Positions 6,600-59,902 of a DNA stretch of 64,000 bases are shown here, in pieces. Below the pieces are notes generated by a model. That model ran no database searches and was not told where the DNA came from. It saw only the letters and a list, made by a program, of their open reading frames with translations. The stretch comes from Spirochaetia bacterium (GTDB lineage: Bacteria > Spirochaetota > Spirochaetia > CAKZLE01): assembly GCA_963677595.1 (NCBI GenBank), contig OY782041.1, positions 320,001-384,000 of the forward strand, given 5' to 3'. A program made the position numbers and the translations under genes. Position 1 is the stretch's first letter. Each line of letters starts with the position of its first letter.

Positions 6600-7574
6600 A
6601 TGAGGAGGCATGAAATGATAAGAGAACCTATCACGTATGACGGGAAGCTGCTCCTCCCGATCACGAGCGACATCATGTTCAAGGCTGTGTTCAGCCGACC
6701 CGAGAGCAGGGACCTCTTAGTCGACCTGCTGAACACCTACCTCAAGATGGGGATAGCTTCCCCTGAGGACATAGACCTGGTAGCCGGGGAGAAACTCCTG
6801 CGCTACACCGAGGACAAGCTCTTTCGCCTCGACCTGCGGGTGAAGACAGCCTCCGGTGAACAGGTCAACATAGAGATCCAGGCAGTCAACCATCATGACA
6901 TCATCGAACGCAGCCTCTTCTATGTCACCGGTATGTACCATGACCAGTTTGAGAAGGGAATGCCATATAATAAAGGGAGAAGGACTGTAGGGTTATACTT
7001 TCTGTGCTATAATGAGTTTGCAGGGAGTCACTTCAAACATTCGTTCATCTTCAGAGAAGAGACCGTCGAAGGGCTGCCGCTGAAGGAGTTGCTCAAGGTA
7101 GTCTACGTGGAGCTCCAGAAGGTCCCGAAGGAAGGGGCTGACATCTGGAGCAGGCTGCTCACAGCAGCGAGTGAAGATGACCTCAAGGAGCTTGAAGCCG
7201 AGGCTCCCCTGATACAGAAGGCGGTGGGTATCATGAAGATCGTAAGTGAGGATGATGAGTTACGGTTCATTGAAACGATGAAGCGTAAAGCCGTGATGGA
7301 TGAGTACTCCAGGAGGGCCTCTGCGTTGTCGGAGGGCATGGCTAAAGGCATAGCTAAAGGTAAAGTTGAAGGTAAAGTTGAAGGCCGTGAAGAGACGCAG
7401 CAGGAGATCGCCCTCAAGCTTGCAGAACAGGGCTTCTCAAGCGAGCAAATCATTTCCCTGACTGGTATCGATGCGAACAAGCTTGCCGAAATCTCTCAGA
7501 ACAGGGCTGCCGCTGAAGGAGTTGCTCAAGGTAGTCTACGTGGAGCTCCAGAAGGTCCCGGAGGAGAGGGCTGA
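6600..7574 (+). CDS. Rpn-family / PD-(D/E)XK nuclease (PDDEXK_2); C-terminus altered by duplication
   Basis: DIMFKAVF, RLDLRV...NIEIQ, ERSLFY, EG-x3 repeats and C-terminal HTH-like tail. Confidence 0.88.
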   Translation: MRRHEMIREPITYDGKLLLPITSDIMFKAVFSRPESRDLLVDLLNTYLKMGIASPEDIDLVAGEKLLRYTEDKLFRLDLRVKTASGEQVNIEIQAVNHHDIIERSLFYVTGMYHDQFEKGMPYNKGRRTVGLYFLCYNEFAGSHFKHSFIFREETVEGLPLKELLKVVYVELQKVPKEGADIWSRLLTAASEDDLKELEAEAPLIQKAVGIMKIVSEDDELRFIETMKRKAVMDEYSRRASALSEGMAKGIAKGKVEGKVEGREETQQEIALKLAEQGFSSEQIISLTGIDANKLAEISQNRAAAEGVAQGSLRGAPEGPGGEG

Positions 7575-7927
7575 CATCTGGAGCAGGCTGCTCACAGCAG
7601 CGAGTGAAGATGACCTCAAGGAGCTTGAAGCCGGGGCTCCCCTGATACAGAAGGCGGTGGGTATCATGAAGATCGTAAGTGAGGATGATGAGTTACGGTT
7701 CATTGAAACGATGAAGCGTAAAGCCGTGATGGATGAGTACTCCAGGAGGGCCTCTGCGTTGTCAGAGGGCATAGCCAAAGGTAAAGTTGAAGGTAAAGTT
7801 GAAGGCCGTGAAGAGACACAGCAGGAGATCGCCCTCAAGCTTGCAGAACAGGGATTCTCAAGCGAGCAGATCATTTCCCTGACTGGTATCGATGCGAACA
7901 AGCTTGCCGAAATCTCTCAGAACAGGG
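7070..7927 (+). repeat. Tandem duplication of the Rpn 3' region (7070-7502, 433 bp; 7503-7923, 421 bp)
   Basis: Near-identical copies joined at an AGGG microhomology; several substitutions and a 12-bp indel in the GxAK repeat. Confidence 0.95.
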
Positions 7928-9985: not shown

Positions 9986-10131
9986 GTTCCCTCCCTGGTT
10001 ACAATCAGGTACCGTCATTATGAGGTACCCTATCACTCTCTTTCAGGTTAGCACAGCTGAAAGCAGGAGTTAAGGGTAACAGGGAGGAAAAACCGCCAGC
10101 CCCATCCAGAAGCACCTGTGCGGTATGCTTT

Positions 10132-10242
10132 ACCGCAGAAATAGGCAGGCAGTGGACTTCCGTGCTATGATACTGGTATGGGATGCAGGTCTAAGGGAGA
10201 ACGGCTATGATCACACGTGTGAGGTTCACGATCACCGGACGG
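10132..10242 (+). repeat. 111-bp direct repeat, copy 1 (acyP upstream region plus first 12 codons)
   Basis: Matches 13506-13616 with 3 mismatches. Confidence 0.95.
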
Positions 10243-10291: not shown

Positions 10292-10654
10292 TCAGCTCTC
10301 ACCCCTAATTGCCTGTAGGGAGAGGATCTCCGACACAGATCTTCTTAACTCGGGAACATCAGCGATGGCGATCCGATAGATCCGCTCCTCAAGGATCTCC
10401 CCATATTCATGAGCAATGATGTTTCTCAATCCTATGATCAGCTTCCATGGAATATGATTATACACATCCCTACAACTTACCGAGAGATGAGCGGCGGCCT
10501 CACCTATGACAAGCAGTTGACGTTCAACAGCGAACCGCCTCATCTTATTCTGGGAGAACTCCGAGAATGATATATCCTGCATGAACTTGATGATATCAAT
10601 ACAGGCATCCTTGATATCCCAGAGATAGCCCTGATCCCTTTCATCAAGCTGCAT
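10292..10654 (-). CDS. hepT: HEPN (DUF86, HepT-like) ribonuclease toxin
   Basis: RNIIAHEY (Rx4HxY) motif, IGEA, IPW; overlaps the MNT stop. Confidence 0.9.
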   Translation of the reverse strand: MQLDERDQGYLWDIKDACIDIIKFMQDISFSEFSQNKMRRFAVERQLLVIGEAAAHLSVSCRDVYNHIPWKLIIGLRNIIAHEYGEILEERIYRIAIADVPELRRSVSEILSLQAIRGES

Positions 10655-10949
10655 AGATGACCTTTGCATTCTTTAGGATATGCTCTTTCCTGTAGGGGTT
10701 TCTCAGACTCCCTTTCTCAACAAGATCAACGCTCCTTCCCAGTGCTTTCTCAAATACCTCCTGTATGGCGAACAGGTCAAACAAGGAGTATGCAACACCT
10801 TCATTGAAAACAACCAGGAGATCTATATCACTCTCCTCAGTGAAGCTTTCAGTGAGTATCGATCCGAACAGGGAGAGCTCCTCGATGTGGTATGCTAAAG
10901 AGATAGCTTCTATTACCGTATCATCGATCTCATACTTAGGGAATCTCAT
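10644..10949 (-). CDS. mntA: Minimal nucleotidyltransferase antitoxin (MntA-like)
   Basis: LFGS-x9-SDIDLL, GRSVDLV; immediately upstream of HEPN. Confidence 0.9.
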   Translation of the reverse strand: MRFPKYEIDDTVIEAISLAYHIEELSLFGSILTESFTEESDIDLLVVFNEGVAYSLFDLFAIQEVFEKALGRSVDLVEKGSLRNPYRKEHILKNAKVIYAA

Positions 10950-10983: not shown

Positions 10984-11258
10984 GAGAGAGGATTCAGCAA
11001 ATAAGACCAGATTCCCGTCAGCAGGATTAGTTTCACCCCACATTCCTCACTTTCATGACGCACACATAGCAGGATTTTCCATTTCAGGAAAGGATTGAGA
11101 CTACGAAGGGCTATTCATCCTTACCGATCCTCCACACGGCATAAAAATCGGCAAATCCGCCTGGTTGCTACCCCGTCTGAACAGACATGCTGATGATCAG
11201 GACAGTAACCAGCCTTCTCATAGGTTCTGAGGATCAGACGCAGGTACACCTACGAAGT

Positions 11259-12962
11259 TCATGCATGCAGAGAGGTCAGGACACACCTCACCCCCTTGTC
11301 GTAGAATACGCGTTCATCAAGACCCAATGCAGACAGGAAGGCCAACTGACGGGAAGAGAGCGGATTTACCAGCACCGCTTCTGCTCCCATCTCTGCCGCC
11401 ATGATACCGCCAAACACGGTACTCATCATGAATGAAGTCGGCTTTGCCGTCGGTTTGTTGTCCCAGCCTGGTACCGTAGTACCTTCCTTCTGGAGATACC
11501 GCCGCATCTGCCGCTCCATCAACCGCCAGACCATCAGGGCGATCACGAGAATCATCCCCAATGCATCTATGCGGGAAGGGGTTTTCAGAAACAGGTCATT
11601 GACTACCAGGGGATCCTTGAGGAATGAAAAATCACTCTCGATCCCATACTGGCCTTTGTACGTACGCAGTACCGATGCGGCATCAAGCGATGCAACAGCA
11701 ACATTGGTAAGCAGCACAAAACATCCTGCCTGCTCTCTGAGCACCTGCAGCTTGTCCGACTTTTCGGTGATCTCCCAGTTCAACTCATACCGCAGATCTA
11801 CAGGCGGCGGACCCTCCTTCGGGGGACGTCCACGACGCCGAACCGCCACTTCTTGGATCGTAACCGTTAACGAGTGCAGCGGGGAAGAGACCGCAGCGAG
11901 GTTGGCAGCAGCAACCTGCGCATCTTCGCTGCAGTAATACTGTCGCTGAACTTTCTTCAATTTCCCGTTCAGCTCCTTCAACGATTGCTCAATCGCTTTG
12001 TCAATCTTCTTCTGCCTTCGCTTATCATGGGAACTCGAATGTATCACGACCCCGCGATAGGGCTTTTCATACAACGTTACCGTCGTCTCGCACCCCTTAT
12101 AGATCGCAGGAGGCCGGTTCTTCCCTGTTGGTGTTTCAGCCATCATGCCTATGGGACTCCAGCGACCCGCTCCGATCGCTTCCCTTATTGCCTGGTCACA
12201 TGCGCCGTAGGTTGCCGGAAGACGGCTGATGAATGGCATCGACCCTAAAGCCTCCAGATTCTCCTGCGTCACCATGGCCGAGTCTGCAACATAGATACAG
12301 GCCCCATCTCCCAACCCATGTCGGGAGAGCAGTGTACTGATCCGTGTGAGCATCGCATTGTTAGACGTCTTGTCTGAGGAGTTCCCATTGAGGGTACTGC
12401 TGAAGATTGGGACCCCATGATCCACGCACAGTAACTCCGTCATGAACTGCTTGAGATCCGGTCGGTGATCCTTGGAGTGCCCCAGGACGATCGAAGGCCC
12501 CGGGGTCTTTTCCTGCTCACTCCCCCGGTATTCCCCCCAGACACTCGTACTGGTAGTATCGTAACTGAGGGCATGCATATCCAGATCGAAGACCTGTGCT
12601 GCCCGAATCCCCAGTTCGGTCACAATCTTCGATGGGCCGGCATCGAAGATCGCATCCAGGGACCGAGCTATGTTCGTGTCATTGAACAGATGCGGATCTA
12701 CCTCCTGTCCCAGCAATAGGCTGCGGTTCTGCTGCTCGATGAACTGCTCGATCCGATACAGCGGCGACCGTCCATGCAGGACATCGAGCACCATCGTCTG
12801 TACCACGAGCCCCGGAGATAGCTGCATACGGGTCTCCACCGCCGCATCCACGATGTCTCTCAACCCGAGCATGCGGCAGTAGGCCGCCGCAATGGGCAGG
12901 TAGGAATGGGTATAGATTCTGGTATGCTGAAACAGGGTTGAAAGGGGCGGAGTACTGGCCAT
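11259..12962 (-). CDS. IS1634-family DDE transposase
   Basis: YDTTS, GHSKDHRPDLKQ, VADSA, YKGQYGIESDFSFLK (Y-x2-Q-x3-E-x6-K). Confidence 0.93.
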   Translation of the reverse strand: MASTPPLSTLFQHTRIYTHSYLPIAAAYCRMLGLRDIVDAAVETRMQLSPGLVVQTMVLDVLHGRSPLYRIEQFIEQQNRSLLLGQEVDPHLFNDTNIARSLDAIFDAGPSKIVTELGIRAAQVFDLDMHALSYDTTSTSVWGEYRGSEQEKTPGPSIVLGHSKDHRPDLKQFMTELLCVDHGVPIFSSTLNGNSSDKTSNNAMLTRISTLLSRHGLGDGACIYVADSAMVTQENLEALGSMPFISRLPATYGACDQAIREAIGAGRWSPIGMMAETPTGKNRPPAIYKGCETTVTLYEKPYRGVVIHSSSHDKRRQKKIDKAIEQSLKELNGKLKKVQRQYYCSEDAQVAAANLAAVSSPLHSLTVTIQEVAVRRRGRPPKEGPPPVDLRYELNWEITEKSDKLQVLREQAGCFVLLTNVAVASLDAASVLRTYKGQYGIESDFSFLKDPLVVNDLFLKTPSRIDALGMILVIALMVWRLMERQMRRYLQKEGTTVPGWDNKPTAKPTSFMMSTVFGGIMAAEMGAEAVLVNPLSSRQLAFLSALGLDERVFYDKGVRCVLTSLHA

Positions 12963-12993
12963 CGGTATCCTCCTGTAGCGGTCGTGGAAACAG

Positions 12994-13052
12994 GACTTGA
13001 CTGATCACTGAACCTACTGTATTATACAGTAGGACAAGAGAGGAGTCAAGTC
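12994..13052. promoter_or_regulatory. Symmetric overlapping divergent promoters within the IS
   Basis: + strand TTGACT(12997)-N17-TATTAT(13020); - strand TTGACT(13049)-N17-TATAAT(13026); dyad centre 13023. Confidence 0.85.
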
Positions 13053-13415
13053 ATGACCACCGAGACGGCACAGAAGCGCCTTCAGGTACTTCGCCGCAAA
13101 CAGCAGGAACTCGCCAAGGAACTGAGCACGATCGAATTTATCTGGTCAGGATCCATCTCCAAACGGTTTCTTACCTGCGGGAACCCCTCGTGCAAGTGTC
13201 ATACAGACACTGAGGCCAAGCATGGACCGTATTACTATTGGACGACCAAAAAGGGCGGGAAGACCGTAGCCAGGAAGCTCACAGAGCAGCAGGCTGAGGT
13301 CCTCCAACCATGGATTGAGAACAGGAGAACCCTGGAGAAGACGATGAATGCCATGAAGAAGCTCTCTCAGGATGCGTATGAAGCCATTTTGGTCCTCTTG
13401 GACGATGAAGGGTAG
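13053..13415 (+). CDS. IS passenger protein, DUF6788-like putative Zn-binding protein
   Basis: GS-x7-CGNPSCKC...HGPYYY; GAGGAG RBS; flanking coiled-coil-like helices. Confidence 0.8.
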   Translation: MTTETAQKRLQVLRRKQQELAKELSTIEFIWSGSISKRFLTCGNPSCKCHTDTEAKHGPYYYWTTKKGGKTVARKLTEQQAEVLQPWIENRRTLEKTMNAMKKLSQDAYEAILVLLDDEG

Positions 13416-13505
13416 CGCTTTTTAAACCGATTTTAGCCCGAAATTAAATACCCGTTTTTTGCTGAGAAATAGTGAGGAATGTGGGTTTCACCGTTTGGCA
13501 TCTTA

Positions 13506-13616
13506 ACCGCAGAAATAGGCAGGCAGTGGACTTCCGTGCTATGATACTGGTATGGGATGCAGGTCTAAGGGAGAACAGCTATGATCACACGAGTGAGGTT
13601 CACGATCACCGGGCGG
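13506..13616 (+). repeat. 111-bp direct repeat, copy 2 (intact acyP start)
   Basis: Matches 10132-10242. Confidence 0.95.
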
Positions 13617-17053: not shown

Positions 17054-17104
17054 AGCTGCCTCCTTTTTTAAGACAGTATACCCTCAAGCCCATACTGTTA
17101 GCAA

Positions 17105-18887
17105 CCCAAATTCCCGATAATTTGTAACTAGGAGAGAGGCGTGATGGTTTCGAAGGGATCCTGATCACCCTCATTCACCAGCTTTCCCTTCCAGGAATAC
17201 TGGACACCGAACAGGTCAAAGATAAGGCGCTGAGCTTTGGTCGGGACCGTAAAAACGTCACCATACTTGCCTCGGTAATGAACTTTCGAGTACGTATTTA
17301 CCTTATCCAGTACTTCCTTGTAGTTCCAATACTTGCGCTGCTTCGCAGGAATGAGCTTGATGCGTTCCTTCAGAGCAGTGAGAATAATCAGAGTTATGAA
17401 ATTAACGAAGAGCCTTCCCTGCATCACCTTGTCAGTATGGACTCTCAAGCGATTGCAATCGACAAGATTCTTCATATCATCGAAGAGCAGTTCAATGTCA
17501 TTTCTCTGCCGGTAGGCATATAAAGCCTGAACAGGATCCTTTTCTGCATTGGTATAGAGAACCCAGAATCCGCTTTGCCCATCGATGAAAGCCTGAACTT
17601 CCTGATCCTTAAGAATCACTCTCCTTCCTCTTTTAGGCGTCTCTTTCACTTCGAAGTATCGCTTATAGTACGACTGATGGTATTTAATTGGCTCATTCGC
17701 ATCAAGCTCGGCTTTGCATTTCTGCAGTCGCTCCATCAGACGGGCAACGTCCCGCTCTTTTCTTGCCGCATCGAAATAGACATGAGCCCACATTCTTCCG
17801 TGTTCAGTCTTCCTGATGGTCTTCAAACCATAGATGATGGCATCGGTATCATCCGCAGGAATAAGCGTGTTTGGACGTTGAATGGTACGGCGATGTTTCT
17901 CTATAAGTTCTCTAGCCCAGGTCACGTTCGAAGGAACAGGTATGAGGAATTCGTGACCATGATCGCTCAAATGAGCGATGTTATCGACAGAGCAGAACGC
18001 TCTGTCCCCTATGATCACAGAGGAAGGGATCTCAAGTTTTTTCAGCTGTTCGAGCACCTGTTGAAGAACTATTGAATCGTTCATACTTCCAGGCATTTCT
18101 GAAAACCAGAGAGGAAGGTGAGTTTCATAGGAACTGAGAAGCCCGATATTGATCTGAGGGATCTTTTCTTTGTCTCGGTTATACCCACGCTCTACATAGG
18201 GATTATGCTTCGCATAGCTGGAGATGCTGCTGATGTCGAATAACAGATTCTTCTTTTCCATGTTCTTTCCTATCCAGGAAGAGAAGAATGTGTTCTGAAT
18301 GTCCTTATCAAGTCTTTTCAGGAGTTCGGTGATCCTCTGTGAACAGAGGCTGGAACCATTGAATCCTCGGTCATCAAGCCAGGACTCAGCATAGCTGAGA
18401 GGTCTGCCGGTACAGATTGAGTATTTCGCAAGCTCGAGAACAGAGATCGCATCCTGAGATCCTAATGCCTTTGAAAGAATACGCCCCAGTCCGATGCGCC
18501 TGATGATAGGATCGAGGAGGAGATTCTGACCGAGCAGGGTTGTCTTTGATACAACAGGGACAGGAAGCTCTTTGGCTTGATTCTCTTGCTGCCGGGATAG
18601 GTAAAATGAGTTATAGATGATCTGTCCATGAGTATCAAGCTTACCGATACACTTACGGCTATGACGACCTTGCTTTTTCTCGCTATCCCAATAGGCGGTG
18701 TCTTCGTAGACATACGTGACATTGGATTTCTTGTTGTGGACCTTGATAATTTTGGCGGTATTCCCTGCTTTTGTCATAGTTCTAATTATAACTATGTTTT
18801 ACAGAATATTCAATCACCAAATAGATATCTAATACATATATTTAATGAATTTATGATTCCCTAGTTACAATTTATCGGGAATTTGGG
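17105..18887 (-). mobile_element. IS1634-family element, type B (1783 bp)
   Basis: 28-bp IR CCCAAATTCCCGATAA(T/A)TTGTAACTAGG with 1 mismatch; 7-bp TSD TTAGCAA. Confidence 0.95.
17128..18777 (-). CDS. IS1634-family transposase
   Basis: FDISSISSY, GYNRD, GDRAF, YRQRNDIELLFDDMK. Confidence 0.92.
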   Translation of the reverse strand: MTKAGNTAKIIKVHNKKSNVTYVYEDTAYWDSEKKQGRHSRKCIGKLDTHGQIIYNSFYLSRQQENQAKELPVPVVSKTTLLGQNLLLDPIIRRIGLGRILSKALGSQDAISVLELAKYSICTGRPLSYAESWLDDRGFNGSSLCSQRITELLKRLDKDIQNTFFSSWIGKNMEKKNLLFDISSISSYAKHNPYVERGYNRDKEKIPQINIGLLSSYETHLPLWFSEMPGSMNDSIVLQQVLEQLKKLEIPSSVIIGDRAFCSVDNIAHLSDHGHEFLIPVPSNVTWARELIEKHRRTIQRPNTLIPADDTDAIIYGLKTIRKTEHGRMWAHVYFDAARKERDVARLMERLQKCKAELDANEPIKYHQSYYKRYFEVKETPKRGRRVILKDQEVQAFIDGQSGFWVLYTNAEKDPVQALYAYRQRNDIELLFDDMKNLVDCNRLRVHTDKVMQGRLFVNFITLIILTALKERIKLIPAKQRKYWNYKEVLDKVNTYSKVHYRGKYGDVFTVPTKAQRLIFDLFGVQYSWKGKLVNEGDQDPFETITPLS

Positions 18888-18934
18888 TTAGCAAGATAGT
18901 TCACCCGATTGTGTTGAGTACTGCAAACGTAACA

Positions 18935-47932: not shown

Positions 47933-48003
47933 CCTGACAAAATTATGCCATATTTCCCCCCTATGATATGACTCATAGAACGGGTGACAACCCATGAGGA
48001 GAA
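47933..48003 (+). promoter_or_regulatory. Conserved promoter/leader, copy A
   Basis: CCTGACAAAATT-N4-CATATTTCCCCC-N-TAT-N-ATAT...GGGTGACAACCC..AGGAGAA; homologous to 51929-51998 (-). Confidence 0.8.
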
Positions 48004-48008
48004 ACAGT

Positions 48009-48566
48009 ATGAGAAAGAACAGATTCATCATCCTGCTGGCACTTTTCGCCTTGGCAGTATCAGGGGGCCTCTATGCAGCAAACACCTTCAGTGCAGGCGT
48101 CGCAGGCTACTACACCTACGATGACCTGACTGCAGGCAATTATCGCACATTCCTTCCCGGAGTACGGGTGGAATTCTTCCTGAATGATTTCTTGGGCGTA
48201 TCAGGAGATGCAGTGTTCAAGCAGGATGCCGATTACGAGGATGTCTATTCCGCTACCTGTATTGCCGATGTAGTGCTCCGGCTCCCGCTCGGGCCGCTGG
48301 AACCGTATGTAGCGACAGGTCCTGCGTTCGAGGGTATCATCGTGGGCGACTACTTCGATATCGAGGACAGTGCTTTTGCCTACAACCTCAGAGGCGGAGT
48401 CGACCTGAACCTCTGGGACACATTCTCGGTAGGGACGGAGGTCAACTTCCTGGTAGATGATGTGATCTCATTCGTGGAGGGGTTCTCAGACCTGACCCCC
48501 ACCCAGCAGAGCCAGGTCCTCAAGGAGTACGGTACCATCGGCCTAACAGCTAAGCTCAAGTTCTGA
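48009..48566 (+). CDS. Outer-membrane beta-barrel-like protein
   Basis: Signal peptide, alternating beta-strands, EPYV..G motif, terminal Phe (LTAKLKF). Confidence 0.7.
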   Translation: MRKNRFIILLALFALAVSGGLYAANTFSAGVAGYYTYDDLTAGNYRTFLPGVRVEFFLNDFLGVSGDAVFKQDADYEDVYSATCIADVVLRLPLGPLEPYVATGPAFEGIIVGDYFDIEDSAFAYNLRGGVDLNLWDTFSVGTEVNFLVDDVISFVEGFSDLTPTQQSQVLKEYGTIGLTAKLKF

Positions 48567-48591
48567 GCTAAAAAAGCTGTGCTGTCATAGT

Positions 48592-49959
48592 TCAAACTGG
48601 GGGTTGAGTCGGGAACTCGATAATAAAACAGTTCCCGACTCCTTCACGACTCTCCAGCTTGACATCCCCGCCATGCAGCTGTGCTATCTGGCGTACGATC
48701 GAGAGCCCAAGACCGTTCCCCGGTGTTAAACTGCCCCGGGAAGTATCACCGCGGTAGAACCTTTCGAATATCTTCTCACGCAGCAGGGCAGGTATAGGTT
48801 CCCCGTCATCACACACTTCTATCCGGCAGAGATCCTGCTCGATGCTGCCGCTTATCACAACATGCTTACCGCTTCGGTTGTACCGTATCGCATTCTGGAT
48901 GAGGTTGCCGACAGCCCTTCGCATTCTCACCTCATCCATCAAAACAGTACCAGCCTCCCCTTCCGGCAGCCTGCAGGAGAGCGACTTGGCCCCTATGGCG
49001 GCTGCACTCCTCCACTGCCGCTCCACTGTGGAGAGAACCATCCGCAGATCAAGTGCTCGCAGGTTCAGCCGTATCTCTCCGCAGTCCGCCTCAGAGAGGT
49101 ACTCCAGGTCATATACCAGGCCCGAGAGCGAATCGATGCTGCCGATCATGCCCCTGGTTGCCTCATCAACGGTGGTGATGCCGTCTTTGAGAGATCTAGC
49201 CTCAAGCCGGATCGCGTGCAGTGGTCCGTTGAGGTCATGGGCGAGGTCTGCCATCAACTGCCGCCTCAAACCCCTCTGCCGCTCAAGCTCCCCGCTCATC
49301 TCATTGAATGATTCCCCGAGACTCGTGGTCTCGGAACTCCCGGAAGGGATGATCTCCTTCTGCTCCCCTGAGGCGACAGCTGTCATCGCATGCTGAAGCT
49401 CACTGAGCGGCCGTGTGATCCGCCTTGACATGATGGCCAGGATGAGGACTGCGATACCGGCAGTCACGACCTCCCTCCAGAGGAGAGACGTGAGGAGAGA
49501 TGTGAGGTATTTTCTGCTCTCGGCATCGATATAGTCAGCGCTGATATAGAGCGTCACCGACCCGACAGCCTCCAAGGCTTCAAGGTCGCGTATCTCGCAG
49601 CGGTCACCCTTAATCAGGGCGCTGTTTCCCACGGTGGAGAGGGTCTCGAAACTGTTTAGCAGCATCTTCCCCTCGACATCATGGACCACCAGGCGGATGT
49701 GGGCATCCTGCTCTCCGAGGTAATCGAGGGAGATCATATGCTCAAGTTCTGTTTCCAGTTCATCCCACCCCTGGTCCCGTGTGTAGACGGCACTCAGGTA
49801 CCCGCCTATCAGCTCGCTCCTGAAACTCGTCAGGAGCAGCGGCAGGTCTCGCCGATACTGCATATAATCAAGTGCCATACTCAACGCGGATGAGAGGAGG
49901 ACGATGAGGAAGAATACCGATGTGATGTAGACGTACATCGGGACGTTTCTTACTCGCAT
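48592..49959 (-). CDS. HAMP sensor histidine kinase (BaeS-like)
   Basis: AHDLNGPL, NLIQNAIRY, FERFYR, GNGLGL. Confidence 0.93.
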   Translation of the reverse strand: MRVRNVPMYVYITSVFFLIVLLSSALSMALDYMQYRRDLPLLLTSFRSELIGGYLSAVYTRDQGWDELETELEHMISLDYLGEQDAHIRLVVHDVEGKMLLNSFETLSTVGNSALIKGDRCEIRDLEALEAVGSVTLYISADYIDAESRKYLTSLLTSLLWREVVTAGIAVLILAIMSRRITRPLSELQHAMTAVASGEQKEIIPSGSSETTSLGESFNEMSGELERQRGLRRQLMADLAHDLNGPLHAIRLEARSLKDGITTVDEATRGMIGSIDSLSGLVYDLEYLSEADCGEIRLNLRALDLRMVLSTVERQWRSAAAIGAKSLSCRLPEGEAGTVLMDEVRMRRAVGNLIQNAIRYNRSGKHVVISGSIEQDLCRIEVCDDGEPIPALLREKIFERFYRGDTSRGSLTPGNGLGLSIVRQIAQLHGGDVKLESREGVGNCFIIEFPTQPPV

Positions 49960-50624
49960 ACCAACCGGTACCCCCCTCCATAGACTGTCTGGATCGGGGC
50001 GAATCCATCTGCGTGGATGATCTTCCTCAAACGGCGGATATGAGAGTCTACAGCCCGGTCGTACCCTTCGAACGAATCGGGGAAGGACTGCTCGATGATC
50101 TGCTCCCGGGACAGCACTGCTCCCGGCTGTCTCAGGAGGGTCCAGAGGATGAGGAACTGGGCCTGTGTGACTGGCAGCCGCGCCCCATCCAGGAAGACCT
50201 CAGCGGTATCGCTGTCCGCACTCAGCCGGCCGCAGGTTATCGTTCTGCGCACCTGGCTCCTCGTCCGTCGCAGGAGGGCTTTCACCCGTGCCACAAGCTC
50301 ATCCGGGTCAAAGGGTTTAGTGATATAGTCATCAGCACCGCCGTCCAGCCCTTTCAGGCGGTCATCGCGGGAACCAAGGGCAGTCACCATGATGATAGGC
50401 ACATCCGAATCCTGCCGTATGATCCTACGGAGCTCGCTCCCGTCGATCCCCGGCAGCATGATATCGAGGAGGATCAGGTCGAAGCTCTCAGTGCGAATCG
50501 CCTCCAGCGCCTTCCTGCCGTCCGGGACATGCATAGTCCTGAGACCGGATCGTTCCAGGTACGCGCTGACCAGATGTGCACTGCGCACATCATCCTCAAC
50601 CAGCAGTATCCGGGTCTCACTCAT
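49950..50624 (-). CDS. OmpR-family response regulator (BaeR-like)
   Basis: VEDD, LDIMLP, GADDYITKPF, RAVDSHIRRLR. Confidence 0.95.
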   Translation of the reverse strand: MSETRILLVEDDVRSAHLVSAYLERSGLRTMHVPDGRKALEAIRTESFDLILLDIMLPGIDGSELRRIIRQDSDVPIIMVTALGSRDDRLKGLDGGADDYITKPFDPDELVARVKALLRRTRSQVRRTITCGRLSADSDTAEVFLDGARLPVTQAQFLILWTLLRQPGAVLSREQIIEQSFPDSFEGYDRAVDSHIRRLRKIIHADGFAPIQTVYGGGYRLVCE

Positions 50625-51205
50625 CTCTTGCTGGACTCTCTATGGTTCGCGGTTGGTGCTGGCTGCTGAGATGGGGAGGGACCTGACGGTCCCGCACCGC
50701 CGGCTGGGGACGTTTGGGGACTCTCTTCATGATCGGTATGGTCCGAGGGTTGCCCTACGGGTTCATCTGGCTGGTGATTATCCTGCTCATTCGTCTGGTG
50801 ACCTGAAGGTTCATCCACCTGCTCATGAGTCTGTACTGCTGAAGTACTCCCCCCTGTTGGCCGGGAGTTGTCAGTTCGGGTGACCTTACCCCCACTGTTC
50901 ATCCCGGCAAACAGGGATTGGGCCTCATCAGCAGTTAGCTCACCTTCCGCGATACGATAGAGGAGGACCTCGAGCACACCGGAGGTGTCGGTGAAGGGAA
51001 CTCGGTAGTCCCGCCTCAATTCATCGAGGGCAGCCTGAGCTTCCGCCACAGACAGCTCGCCGGTACTGACCTTGAGGCTCAACTCGGAGAAAGTCTGTGA
51101 CAACGTACTTTCGTAGCCTGTCTCTCTGGACCCCAGGCTGTACAAACTGGAGCATAGCAGCAGCATGCAGCAGATAAGAACTACTATGATCCTCTTTCTC
51201 TTCAC
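50621..51205 (-). CDS. Exported hypothetical protein, low-complexity C-terminus
   Basis: Signal peptide (YSLGSRE), repeated GELS/T..EAQ, Q/H/P/S-rich tail. Confidence 0.7.
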   Translation of the reverse strand: MKRKRIIVVLICCMLLLCSSLYSLGSRETGYESTLSQTFSELSLKVSTGELSVAEAQAALDELRRDYRVPFTDTSGVLEVLLYRIAEGELTADEAQSLFAGMNSGGKVTRTDNSRPTGGSTSAVQTHEQVDEPSGHQTNEQDNHQPDEPVGQPSDHTDHEESPQTSPAGGAGPSGPSPSQQPAPTANHRESSKR

Positions 51206-51348
51206 TCGCAGTCACTCCCTTTCAACTGAACAAGACCCTATGGACCCAGTCATTGTACCATGCTGGTTGTTCACCCGCAACTGGGCACGTCATGCTGCGC
51301 GAACAGGGAGCAGGGCGGTCCAGTTTCTCCCAAAAGTGCGTATCATGA

Positions 51349-51924
51349 TCAGTGGGACCCATGCCCGTGGGTCCCTGCAGCAGGAGCACCAGGGCTTGCC
51401 TGTGCTGGGGGTGCAGCATGTTCATGGACAGGGGGTGAAGGCACCTGTGTCAGGTCCGTACCCTCTTCAGAGTCGGGCTCTGTCTCAGTCACTGTACCGA
51501 TACCGCTGTCAACACCGACAGCCGCATGGAGTTCGTGCTGATAGTGCGTCTGAGCCCCAGGTGCATCAAGAGATGCAGCCCCGGTATATGTCACATTCGC
51601 TCCCCCGAACTCCACCAGACCGAGTATACTGGCGAGGGAGGCAAGTTCCTCATCCGTGAGTTCTGCGTCTTCGATCCCGGCAGCGACTGCAGCGTAATCG
51701 AAGCTGCTCCCGTCAGAGAAGCCTTCCAGCCCCAGGATATCGGCAAGTGAAGCCAATTCCTCGTCCGAGAGTGCGTCCTCTGCTGTTCCTGCATCGAGGA
51801 GGGCAGACTGTATGTCAGATACCGTCGTGAGGGCCTCGCTTTCCGATGAGCCCCCGGCAAAGGCCGCACCACATACCAGTACCGTCAGCATGATGCTCAG
51901 CACCACAATCTTCTTCATGTTCAT
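51349..51924 (-). CDS. Exported hypothetical protein with internal repeat and His-rich tail
   Basis: FAGGSSE signal; L(S/T)DEELASLAxILGL twice; ends THGHGSH. Confidence 0.75.
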   Translation of the reverse strand: MNMKKIVVLSIMLTVLVCGAAFAGGSSESEALTTVSDIQSALLDAGTAEDALSDEELASLADILGLEGFSDGSSFDYAAVAAGIEDAELTDEELASLASILGLVEFGGANVTYTGAASLDAPGAQTHYQHELHAAVGVDSGIGTVTETEPDSEEGTDLTQVPSPPVHEHAAPPAQASPGAPAAGTHGHGSH

Positions 51925-51928
51925 CCTC

Positions 51929-51998
51929 TTCTCCTTGCGGGTCGTTACCCAATACCTGAGGATATGATACGGGGGAAATATGACGCAATTTTGTCAGG
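51929..51998 (-). promoter_or_regulatory. Conserved promoter/leader, copy B
   Basis: Reverse complement CCTGACAAAATTGCGTCATATTTCCCCCGTATCATAT...GGGTAACGACCC..AGGAGAA. Confidence 0.8.
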
Positions 51999-56034: not shown

Positions 56035-57469
56035 ACAGACCTCCTTGGTATTCTCTCTGCGGACAGCTTGAAGACCTGTTCGGGCTGCCCGCAGGAACTC
56101 ATAAAAAAGATTATCAGCTTGTATATGGCATGGAGTGGGAGGGCATGGCGAGCTGTACAGACATACACAGGCTCTATGTTCAATTATATGACCGCATTCT
56201 GAGAAGTCAACGTTATATTCATAATATTATTGAGTTTCTTTCTATGTTTCTTTGAGTGTTTTTATCTATTCACCTGCTATACAATCACTTTTACCATGCA
56301 CCCTATCAGTGATCATGGTATAGGGCTACCCTATGTGTCATTCCGTATGATACCTCATTCTGAACCCAGCAGGATGCTCCCCTCCACTGACAAGCCTGCC
56401 GGTATCTGCTACACTGATGCCATTCCTGGCAGTATCAGCCGGGGACTATCTCCCATATCATGGAGGCACTTCAGATGAGACATGACATACAGTTCCCCAG
56501 GATGGCCATGGGCACCTGGACCTTCGCAGGCGATACGATCTGGGACGCCTCTGACGAACAGGAGTCTATCTCCGTCATCCATGCTGCCCTCGATATGGGC
56601 ATCACCCTCTTCGACTCCTCCCCCAATTACGGGAACGGGCGCAGCGAGTCCATCCTGGGTAGGGCCCTGGCTGATCACCCTGAAGCTATGGTCGCAACAA
56701 AGACCAAGATCCAGGGGCAGAGTCGTGACGCTTTGAGGGCTGCTGTAGAAGGTAGCCTGAGGAGGCTCGGAAGAGAAGCGATCGACCTCATACAGATCCA
56801 TTGGCCGGGCACTCCCGAGGAGACCGCTGAGGCACTGGGACTCTTCATGGAGATGCGTCAGGAAGGGGAGATCCGGGCTGTCGGGGTATGTAATTTCGGA
56901 GTATATGACCTGAAAGAGACTGCAGGCTATCCCATCATCAGCAACCAGCTGCCGTACAACCTGATGTGGCGGGTCATTGAGAGGGAGATAGCTCCTCTTT
57001 CCAAAGAGATGGGGAAGCAGGTATGGGTCTATTCCCCGCTTCAGCAGGGGCTGCTGACCGGGAAATATTCCGACCTCACTGGTTTCCCATCGGGGAGGAA
57101 ACGTACACGGCATTATGCATCCTCTCATCCAGCAGCGAACCATGGTGAGGCAGGAATGGAAGCTGAGACACAGGCTGCATTGACAGGATTCCTTGAGATA
57201 GCTGAAGAGACCGGTATTGGACCGCTGGAACTGGGGCTCCGTTATATCCCACATTCCTCACTTTCATGACGCACACATAGCAGGATTTTCCATTTCAGGA
57301 AAGGATTGAGACTACGAAGGGCTATTCATCCTTACCGATCCTCCACACGGCATAAAAATCGGCAAATCCGCCTGGTTGCTACCCCGTCTGAACAGACATG
57401 CTGATGATCAGGACAGTAACCAGCCTTCTCATAGGTTCTGAGGATCAGACGCAGGTACACCTACGAAGT

Positions 57470-59173
57470 TCATGCATGCAGAGAGGTCAGGACACACCTC
57501 ACCCCCTTGTCGTAGAATACGCGTTCATCAAGACCCAATGCAGACAGGAAGGCCAACTGACGGGAAGAGAGCGGATTTACCAGCACCGCTTCTGCTCCCA
57601 TCTCTGCCGCCATGATACCGCCAAACACGGTACTCATCATGAATGAAGTCGGCTTTGCCGTCGGTTTGTTGTCCCAGCCTGGTACCGTAGTACCTTCCTT
57701 CTGGAGATACCGCCGCATCTGCCGCTCCATCAACCGCCAGACCATCAGGGCGATCACGAGAATCATCCCCAATGCATCTATGCGGGAAGGGGTTTTCAGA
57801 AACAGGTCATTGACTACCAGGGGATCCTTGAGGAATGAAAAATCACTCTCGATCCCATACTGGCCTTTGTACGTACGCAGTACCGATGCGGCATCAAGCG
57901 ATGCAACAGCAACATTGGTAAGCAGCACAAAACATCCTGCCTGCTCTCTGAGCACCTGCAGCTTGTCCGACTTTTCGGTGATCTCCCAGTTCAACTCATA
58001 CCGCAGATCTACAGGCGGCGGACCCTCCTTCGGGGGACGTCCACGACGCCGAACCGCCACTTCTTGGATCGTAACCGTTAACGAGTGCAGCGGGGAAGAG
58101 ACCGCAGCGAGGTTGGCAGCAGCAACCTGCGCATCTTCGCTGCAGTAATACTGTCGCTGAACTTTCTTCAATTTCCCGTTCAGCTCCTTCAACGATTGCT
58201 CAATCGCTTTGTCAATCTTCTTCTGCCTTCGCTTATCATGGGAACTCGAATGTATCACGACCCCGCGATAGGGCTTTTCATACAACGTTACCGTCGTCTC
58301 GCACCCCTTATAGATCGCAGGAGGCCGGTTCTTCCCTGTTGGTGTTTCAGCCATCATGCCTATGGGACTCCAGCGACCCGCTCCGATCGCTTCCCTTATT
58401 GCCTGGTCACATGCGCCGTAGGTTGCCGGAAGACGGCTGATGAATGGCATCGACCCTAAAGCCTCCAGATTCTCCTGCGTCACCATGGCCGAGTCTGCAA
58501 CATAGATACAGGCCCCATCTCCCAACCCATGTCGGGAGAGCAGTGTACTGATCCGTGTGAGCATCGCATTGTTAGACGTCTTGTCTGAGGAGTTCCCATT
58601 GAGGGTACTGCTGAAGATTGGGACCCCATGATCCACGCACAGTAACTCCGTCATGAACTGCTTGAGATCCGGTCGGTGATCCTTGGAGTGCCCCAGGACG
58701 ATCGAAGGCCCCGGGGTCTTTTCCTGCTCACTCCCCCGGTATTCCCCCCAGACACTCGTACTGGTAGTATCGTAACTGAGGGCATGCATATCCAGATCGA
58801 AGACCTGTGCTGCCCGAATCCCCAGTTCGGTCACAATCTTCGATGGGCCGGCATCGAAGATCGCATCCAGGGACCGAGCTATGTTCGTGTCATTGAACAG
58901 ATGCGGATCTACCTCCTGTCCCAGCAATAGGCTGCGGTTCTGCTGCTCGATGAACTGCTCGATCCGATACAGCGGCGACCGTCCATGCAGGACATCGAGC
59001 ACCATCGTCTGCACCACGAGCCCCGGAGATAGCTGCATACGGGTCTCCACCGCCGCATCCACGATGTCTCTCAACCCGAGCATGCGGCAGTAGGCCGCCG
59101 CAATGGGCAGGTAGGAATGGGTATAGATTCTGGTATGCTGAAACAGGGTTGAAAGGGGCGGAGTACTGGCCAT
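57470..59173 (-). CDS. IS1634-family DDE transposase
   Basis: Protein identical to 11259-12962. Confidence 0.93.
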   Translation of the reverse strand: MASTPPLSTLFQHTRIYTHSYLPIAAAYCRMLGLRDIVDAAVETRMQLSPGLVVQTMVLDVLHGRSPLYRIEQFIEQQNRSLLLGQEVDPHLFNDTNIARSLDAIFDAGPSKIVTELGIRAAQVFDLDMHALSYDTTSTSVWGEYRGSEQEKTPGPSIVLGHSKDHRPDLKQFMTELLCVDHGVPIFSSTLNGNSSDKTSNNAMLTRISTLLSRHGLGDGACIYVADSAMVTQENLEALGSMPFISRLPATYGACDQAIREAIGAGRWSPIGMMAETPTGKNRPPAIYKGCETTVTLYEKPYRGVVIHSSSHDKRRQKKIDKAIEQSLKELNGKLKKVQRQYYCSEDAQVAAANLAAVSSPLHSLTVTIQEVAVRRRGRPPKEGPPPVDLRYELNWEITEKSDKLQVLREQAGCFVLLTNVAVASLDAASVLRTYKGQYGIESDFSFLKDPLVVNDLFLKTPSRIDALGMILVIALMVWRLMERQMRRYLQKEGTTVPGWDNKPTAKPTSFMMSTVFGGIMAAEMGAEAVLVNPLSSRQLAFLSALGLDERVFYDKGVRCVLTSLHA

Positions 59174-59263
59174 CGGTATCCTCCTGTAGCGGTCGTGGAA
59201 ACAGGACTTGACTGATCACTGAACCTACTGTATTATACAGTAGGACAAGAGAGGAGTCAAGTC

Positions 59264-59626
59264 ATGACCACCGAGACGGCACAGAAGCGCCTTCAGGTAC
59301 TTCGCCGCAAACAGCAGGAACTCGCCAAGGAACTGAGCACGATCGAATTTATCTGGTCAGGATCCATCTCCAAACGGTTTCTTACCTGCGGGAACCCCTC
59401 GTGCAAGTGTCATACAGACACTGAGGCCAAGCATGGACCGTATTACTATTGGACGACCAAAAAGGGCGGGAAGACCGTAGCCAGGAAGCTCACAGAGCAG
59501 CAGGCTGAGGTCCTCCAACCATGGATTGAGAACAGGAGAACCCTGGAGAAGACGATGAATGCCATGAAGAAGCTCTCTCAGGATGCGTATGAAGCCATTT
59601 TGGTCCTCTTGGACGATGAAGGGTAG
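59264..59626 (+). CDS. IS passenger protein, DUF6788-like
   Basis: Identical to 13053-13415. Confidence 0.8.
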   Translation: MTTETAQKRLQVLRRKQQELAKELSTIEFIWSGSISKRFLTCGNPSCKCHTDTEAKHGPYYYWTTKKGGKTVARKLTEQQAEVLQPWIENRRTLEKTMNAMKKLSQDAYEAILVLLDDEG

Positions 59627-59902
59627 CGCTTTTTAAACCGATTTTAGCCCGAAATTAAATACCCGTTTTTTGCTGAGAAATAGTGAGGAATGTGGGTTAT
59701 ATCATGAGCCACAGCTTCATAGACACCCTGCTTGTAGGAGCCCGATCAGTCAAGCAGCTTGCCGACCTGTATGCATCAAGTGAGGGATCACTTGATCCAT
59801 CGATCGTCGAACGGCTTGATGCCGTATCACAGCCGCTCCTTACAGCGACGAAAGGGAACCCGGACATGTACCAGTCGGTATCGCGGGTACGGTACTGATC
59901 AG

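Follow-up and report, generated by a model that had tools for sequence, protein, structure and literature searches.

The dyad at 12994-13052, located between an IS1634 transposase gene and a divergent DUF6788 gene, raises the question of whether it switches expression between the two genes, as a preliminary description of the sequence proposed, or serves another kind of control, and of which protein acts on it. The comparison of DUF6788 loci presented below argues that DUF6788 is probably an autorepressor encoded by the element and acting on both promoters at once. The window, namely the whole stretch of 64,000 nt that was analysed, corresponds to positions 320,001-384,000 of the forward strand of contig OY782041.1 in the Spirochaetia bacterium assembly GCA_963677595.1, and the features relevant to the dyad are collected in Table 1.

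Table 1. Coordinates of the element, its genes and the predicted regulatory features in the window.
Feature	Position	Strand	Remarks
IS1634-family element with DUF6788 passenger, copy 1, 2,449 bp	11037-13485	.	target duplication 6 bp at 11031-11036 / 13486-13491
Terminal inverted repeat, 15 bp, transposase-distal end	11037-11051	+	
Terminal inverted repeat, 15 bp, DUF6788 end	13471-13485	-	
IS1634 transposase, 567 aa, DUF4277 + DDE	11259-12962	-	NF033559, 287 bits (cut-off 100)
Predicted sigma-70 promoter of DUF6788: -35 TTGACT 12997-13002, 17 bp, -10 TATTAT 13020-13025	12997-13025	+	10/12
Predicted operator, half-sites 13013-13019 and 13027-13033 round 7-bp -10 core	13013-13033	.	
Predicted sigma-70 promoter of transposase: -35 TTGACT 13049-13044, 17 bp, -10 TATAAT 13026-13021	13021-13049	-	11/12
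DUF6788 gene, 120 aa, pI 9.2; likely repressor	13053-13415	+	Pfam DUF6788, E 2.6e-32
Element copy 2, one substitution, own 6-bp target duplication	57248-59696	.	
Copy 2 transposase	57470-59173	-	
Dyad of copy 2, identical	59205-59263	.	
Copy 2 DUF6788 gene	59264-59626	+	

The element belongs to the IS1634 family: its transposase scores above the NF033559 cut-off, its ends, which are perfect terminal inverted repeats, start with C, and it generates 6-bp target duplications. In the available part of the family description, the ends begin with C, the target duplications measure 5-6 bp and the stated length is 1,500-2,000 bp for a transposase-only element (PMC2266710); the present element, with two genes, exceeds this length because it carries the passenger gene. 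Moreover, its transposase, whose ATG is preceded by the Shine-Dalgarno sequence AGGAGG at a distance of 6 nt, is devoid of the N-terminal beta domain found in many IS1634 transposases, a domain matched by none of 55 DUF6788-linked IS1634 transposases. The 4.33-Mb genome holds eight insertions, each with a separate 6-bp target duplication (8/8); identity among the six uninterrupted copies is 99.96-100%, one of the eight insertions has landed inside another copy, one copy is interrupted, and the depth over the element is about 8x that of the flanks in the DNA-type contig set X1, possibly the source sample. The element is an actively spreading insertion sequence. The nested insertion disrupts the transposase of the copy that received it, with a 6-bp duplication, and a different insert of 2.15 kb, with its own inverted ends, divides another copy (G000:C1:1683475-1688378 / 1734198-1738806 for the two cases jointly).

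The symmetry about 13023, the outer TTGACT -35 boxes, the 17-bp spacers and the identity of the second dyad, all claimed from the letters of the sequence at the outset, are borne out; specifically, the dyad arms are perfect in their inner (10+10) and outer (9+9) parts, and 4 of the 10 spacer positions on each side pair as well. The claim that both -10 boxes occupy the same base pairs stands for five positions out of six (13021-13025) and not for all six. The start sites would lie near 13032 (+) and 13014 (-), 18 bp apart, so that the predicted operator spans both -10 boxes and both predicted starts. The two promoters are two of five promoter-like sites detected in 2.8 kb, where 2.2 are expected, and the dyad of copy 2 does not provide independent support, because both dyads sit in copies of one insertion sequence. 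A search of the genome with the 21-mer, allowing up to 4 mismatches, returned eight occurrences, all within copies of the element, while the search for the half-site pair in the host within one mismatch returned no site at 7-bp spacing and one at 8-bp spacing.

The preliminary description knew no account of the module, but its promoter geometry turns out to be that of the commonest bidirectional promoter of E. coli, with coincident -10 boxes and starts 18 bp apart. According to the available text of Warman et al. (10.1101/2020.01.31.928960), 19% of E. coli start sites belong to divergent pairs, the bidirectional class comprises mapped divergent starts 7-25 bp apart with activity in both orientations, the most frequent distance is 18 bp, at which positions 2 and 6 of the opposing -10 boxes base-pair, and 23 bp is also favoured. 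The dyad resembles this class in that positions 2 and 6 of its -10 boxes pair and its predicted starts are 18 bp apart, and 23 bp, the second commonest spacing among DUF6788 loci, is likewise listed there. It differs in having two near-consensus -35 boxes and a clade-specific palindrome on either side of the -10 core; moreover, as far as the available text of that study goes, the E. coli class involves neither an insertion sequence nor a dedicated regulator.

To place the dyad among its relatives, 180 loci were collected; filtering them for the cysteine motif of DUF6788 and for 230 nt of upstream sequence, and collapsing those more than 85% identical, left 106, and the removal of four weak matches left 102 non-redundant DUF6788 loci. 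A divergent transposase is present at 79 of them, 54 of the IS1634 family and 25 of other groups (IS4, IS5/ISNCY-like, IS1182-like, IS66, IS1380, ISAs1, ISKra4-like, IS701-like and IS481-like), several of these non-IS1634 assignments falling below the NCBIfam cut-offs, while at 4 of the 102 loci the transposase lies downstream on the same strand. Facing TTGAC..GTCAA boxes occur at 47 loci as opposed to 0.3 in dinucleotide shuffles (maximum 2), and inverted 7+7 pairs free of mismatches, separated by 7-9 bp, at 44 loci as opposed to 2.1 in shuffles (maximum 5) and to 4 of 100 in a coding control. When the loci are set in register by a unique TTGAC alone (69 loci), strong symmetry appears over the -10/+1 region, at 26-26.5 and 29.5 bp downstream of the box, with 7, 14 and 9 loci at 26, 26.5 and 29.5 bp, 5 at 27.5 bp and at most 3 elsewhere. 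Promoters matching at least 9 of 12 positions on both strands were recognised at 46 of the 102 loci (1.3 in shuffles); the distance between the predicted starts is 18 bp at 20 of these loci and 23 bp at 14, together 34 of the 46, and 21 bp at 5. These comparisons lend support to the claim of overlapping divergent promoters with an operator over both -10 boxes. At the other 56 loci recognition of both sigma-70 promoters failed, and the reverse -35 box is missing in the Actinomycetota group of DUF6788 loci, two points that weigh against the autorepressor.

Some of these loci have individual traits. In close relatives (L019, L020, L032, proteins P0002-P0014), the reverse -35 box falls inside the first codons of the DUF6788 frame as annotated (Met-Ser-Gln), so that the transposase promoter overlaps the coding start of the passenger. 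At three loci (L003, L010, L013), DUF6788 and a long palindrome lie behind an ISKra4-like end with no intact transposase nearby, and these are possibly non-autonomous remnants.

Facing -35 boxes are mostly missing where an IS1634 element has no DUF6788. Among 60 IS1634 loci chosen by their transposase, 54 of which were used after leaving out six that were truncated or duplicates, facing -35 boxes occur at 2 of 2 loci with DUF6788 and at 2 of 52 without it, both DUF6788-bearing loci being already part of the set of 102 and the stretches scanned in the controls being wider (330 nt) with a few of them short. The 44 control loci whose transposase has the N-terminal beta domain show mostly a one-way promoter, and palindromes upstream of them are not enriched (3 of 44, as opposed to 0.84 in shuffles with a maximum of 3; two starts were mis-picked). 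In many of the beta-domain elements (L192-L248), the predicted start of the sigma-70 promoter coincides with the transposase ATG, which suggests leaderless mRNAs.

An operator could be registered at 56 of the 102 loci (at least 6 of 7 positions symmetric), with no clean operator at the remaining 46; since this set was selected for symmetry, its pairing rate is not evidence. Fifteen distinct, perfectly symmetric half-sites are found among the 56, and in a Spirochaetota subclade both arms have changed to TCCCCAG. The check proposed at the outset, whether symmetry persists ahead of DUF6788 genes elsewhere while the two arms change together, thus came out positive. On the contrary, the proposal that the whole 21-bp palindrome is the operator unit is not supported: the 7-8-bp core is the -10 region and is not symmetric in the class with an 8-bp gap (45 loci), and this, together with the 15 half-site types, indicates that the conserved unit consists of two 7-bp half-sites.

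The letters of these half-sites track DUF6788 across transposase families and phyla, and not the transposase, while the spacers decay. In 87 pairs of loci with a DUF6788 identity of 65-80%, the conservation of half-site letters is 0.91/0.89 as opposed to 0.39/0.40 for the spacers, and the corresponding values are still 0.85/0.83 and 0.33/0.34 in the 61 pairs whose transposases are unrelated and whose DUF6788 proteins are at least 55% identical. Over 50 loci, the operator shows a partial rank correlation of 0.62 with DUF6788 as opposed to 0.14 with the transposase; the correlation with DUF6788 is 0.60 in 612 cross-family pairs, a value reached by none of 1,000 permutations, and within transposase families it is 0.60 with DUF6788 and 0.04 with the transposase, the compared pairs not being independent. 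The half-site CTAGCAG accompanies IS1634, IS4, IS5-like and ISKra4-like elements in seven phyla, and CATACCA is found in both IS1634 and IS66, while one phylum holds several half-site types. Because operator and gene are adjacent, linkage would suffice to make them travel together, a reading weakened by the spacer control. The half-site types were mapped on a DUF6788 tree of 95 columns with many forks open, and the mutual information between residues and bases, confounded by clades, was set aside. On these comparative grounds DUF6788 is a likely binder of the palindrome, which gives support to the role of regulator first ascribed to the DUF6788-like protein.

The same data bear on two other candidate binders. 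The transposase itself might bind the palindrome and repress or toggle both promoters, as the divergent transposase at 79 of the 102 loci and the co-inheritance of both genes within IS1634 could suggest; with the same half-site accompanying unrelated transposases, an operator that within families follows DUF6788 and not the transposase, and a dyad mostly missing from IS1634 elements without DUF6788, this is very improbable. Equally improbable is a host regulator such as LexA, which would link transposition to stress: the genome has lexA and recA, and the dyad arms resemble the E. coli SOS half-site, but the inner spacing is 5 bp and not the 8 bp of the E. coli LexA SOS box, the site is absent from the 300 bp upstream of lexA and recA with no near-match elsewhere at the same spacing, and one half-site type spans seven phyla while one phylum has several types.

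A further alternative dispenses with a DNA-binding protein altogether. The dyad would be a bidirectional promoter at which polymerase competition limits the transposase, the palindrome would be a by-product of promoter symmetry and of homogenisation by template switching, and DUF6788 would act on RNA, on the transposase or on the target. Both promoters are near consensus, and competition at bidirectional promoters arises only when they are strong (PMC12825309, available part); moreover, the overlap of the -10 boxes forces symmetry on the 7-bp core, inverted repeats can be perfected by template switching without selection (PMC7202029, PMC8604942, in the parts available), and G:T mismatches are slightly more numerous than A:C (26 versus 16, a weak excess), as a hairpin might give. 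Linkage and template switching can contribute to the shared and symmetric letters, which counts against the autorepressor. However, the half-sites lie outside the hexamers and keep about 0.9 of their clade-specific letters while the spacers drop to about 0.4, they persist where the reverse promoter is not seen, neither predicted transcript holds both dyad arms, and a specific contact of DUF6788 with each of about ten unrelated transposase families is improbable; taken as a whole, this explanation is unlikely.

The DUF6788 protein has features compatible with the binding of DNA. Its predicted fold (pLDDT 97.7) consists of a helix (residues 3-25), three strands (34-40, 57-67 and 70-76) and a long helix (78-119), and the sheet region (residues 33-76) is basic, with 9 K/R as opposed to 2 D/E. 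Among 104 homologs, C47, C49 and H57 are invariant and C42 is nearly so, and the four residues likely form a zinc site. The prediction of a zinc-bound homodimer scored 0.79, next to 0.77 for the control, and does not count as evidence. Helical hairpins made up most of the matches in a fold search with the full model, while the search with the core domain gave no match at E up to 0.001 in the PDB or in the viral library; the best core match (Z 3.7) is an unrelated enzyme, and the AP2 and integrase arm-binding domains tie with unrelated folds (6sy0, Z 2.9, rmsd 3.7, 45 aligned residues; 3jtz, Z 2.8, rmsd 3.3, 44 aligned residues). This lack of a clear match to a solved DNA-binding fold counts against the autorepressor. 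A sequence search of the PDB gave nothing under E 0.2, the ESM Atlas returned DUF6788 clusters only (next family 0.76), no PHROGs family matched more than 2 of the 104 members, NCBIfam has no family for DUF6788, Rfam gave 0 matches, viral contigs held no relative and the plasmid search returned one weak record. The family counts 2,172 clusters at 50% identity. Two assignments were rejected, namely homology to the N-terminal domain of IS1634 transposases, as a detached version of it (hhalign probability 0.4%, E 0.17; best HMM E 0.2), and a ribbon-helix-helix fold, since the model shows a helix, three strands and a long helix, and Pfam gives DUF6788 alone.

In the proposed mechanism, both promoters would fire from the predicted starts; the basic three-stranded sheet of DUF6788, held by the Cys3His zinc site, would read the 7-bp half-sites, two copies of the protein would bridge them, and the protein sitting over both -10 boxes and both starts would block the polymerase in either direction. 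DUF6788 would thereby repress its own gene and the transposase, in a negative autoregulation with co-repression rather than a toggle or a bistable circuit. The switch between transposase and passenger proposed at first is not supported: a toggle implies two regulators or sites and mutual repression, whereas a single operator was found that tracks DUF6788 alone, the exact -35 span of 53 seen in the window recurs at only 13 of the 47 facing-box loci, and the unit also precedes transposases on the same strand. Moreover, DUF6788 would act in trans on every copy of the element, so that the transposase produced per copy would fall as copies accumulate, with a burst upon entry into a repressor-free cell; the eight near-identical insertions imply that any repression is leaky or at times lifted. 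One locus counts against the autorepressor, as its dyad keeps a 12/12 reverse promoter toward the element end with no gene behind (L009, G023:C96). The IS1634 transposase of that locus is 61% identical to that of the window, and its gene is preceded, in the same orientation, by that of a distant DUF6788.

A reading close to the toggle would retain DUF6788 as the binder and make its action either signal-gated, with the zinc site sensing oxidation or metals, or one-sided, resulting in a switch between passenger and transposase. A MerR-type site was rejected, as it requires a dyad between misspaced -35 and -10 boxes, while here the spacers measure 17 bp and the centre of the dyad falls on the -10. 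MerR-type promoters have a 19-bp spacer. The conserved cysteines and histidine are in line with such a sensor, the position of the operator relative to the promoters varies (spacings 18, 21, 23 and 26-30), and MerR-type regulators hold the polymerase to one orientation at bidirectional promoters (PMC12825309, available part). Nonetheless, in the window both -10 boxes lie at the centre of the operator, which also extends over the two predicted starts, and the spacers measure 17 bp, at variance with a MerR site; one operator with one regulator yields no mutual repression and no signal input was found in the analysis, making a gated or one-sided regulator a distinctly unlikely reading.

Co-repression by DUF6788 would have several counterparts among known systems. 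InsA of IS1, OrfA of the IS3 family and TnpR of Tn3 are element-encoded repressors of transposase transcription, TnpR acting from divergent promoters; InsA and OrfA bind the ends and are encoded within the transposase frame, and TnpR is a resolvase, whereas DUF6788 has a gene of its own and an operator inside the element. At tetA/tetR of Tn10, TetR is an autorepressor made from one side of a bidirectional promoter that represses both RNAs, a ligand-induced protein of the TetR helix-turn-helix family whose target is an efflux pump rather than a transposase. AcrR likewise represses both RNAs of PacrA/acrR (PMC12825309, available part), being an autorepressor made from one side of a bidirectional promoter; it differs in its TetR-family helix-turn-helix, its induction by ligands and its control of an efflux pump instead of a transposase. 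The closest tested precedent is Arc, a small accessory protein encoded by an insertion sequence, which binds the bidirectional intergenic IS605 promoter at inverted motifs over promoter elements, with repression shown in one direction and autoregulation proposed (2026 preprint, 10.64898/2026.09.24.754181, as far as its available text goes). However, Arc is a ribbon-helix-helix protein of HUH/TnpB elements, while the predicted fold of DUF6788 sets a zinc-bound sheet of three strands on a helical hairpin; DUF6788 is associated with about ten DDE families, and its site, unlike that of Arc, is centred on the shared -10. The main text of the preprint contains no occurrence of "DUF".

Neither the geometry of the promoters nor the logic of the regulation is thus new, as far as the available parts of these sources go, and what is added is DUF6788 as a probable regulator, unstudied and portable. 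No paper found by the literature search names DUF6788 or PF20586, the available part of PMC3942029 names no such gene, and no prior description of the DUF6788-palindrome module was found in the literature within reach, which does not include subscription journals and ISfinder notes. A broader reading, to which slightly less than an even chance is given, holds that DUF6788 and its operator-promoter form a self-contained governor cassette acquired by about ten unrelated DDE transposase families, that its zinc-bound DNA-binding domain is one without a clear solved relative, that the operator letters diverge with the protein into orthogonal pairs, and that the cassette caps the transposase as copies grow and allows a burst in a naive host. 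If the autorepressor is real, it would provide a function and a binding site for an unstudied family, indicate that dedicated, swappable repressors are not confined to IS605 and Arc but are present across many DDE insertion sequences, and bear on the limits to the copy number of insertion sequences. The 15 perfect half-site types form a natural series of protein/operator pairs, which makes a recognition code testable, and such pairs could yield compact orthogonal two-way promoters.

Lastly, other repeats are present in the window. A 115-nt direct repeat (97%; 10128-10242 and 13502-13616) flanks an MNT-HepT toxin-antitoxin pair (10292-10949, -) together with the insertion sequence; it copies the promoter and gene start of an acylphosphatase, and the arrangement resembles a small integrated islet. 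Two stretches bounded by inverted repeats, 17103-18889 (30 nt, 97%) and 47933-51998 (37 nt, 86%), are probably other mobile elements, and 7070-7927 contains a near-identical duplication in tandem, its period being about 420-430 bp.
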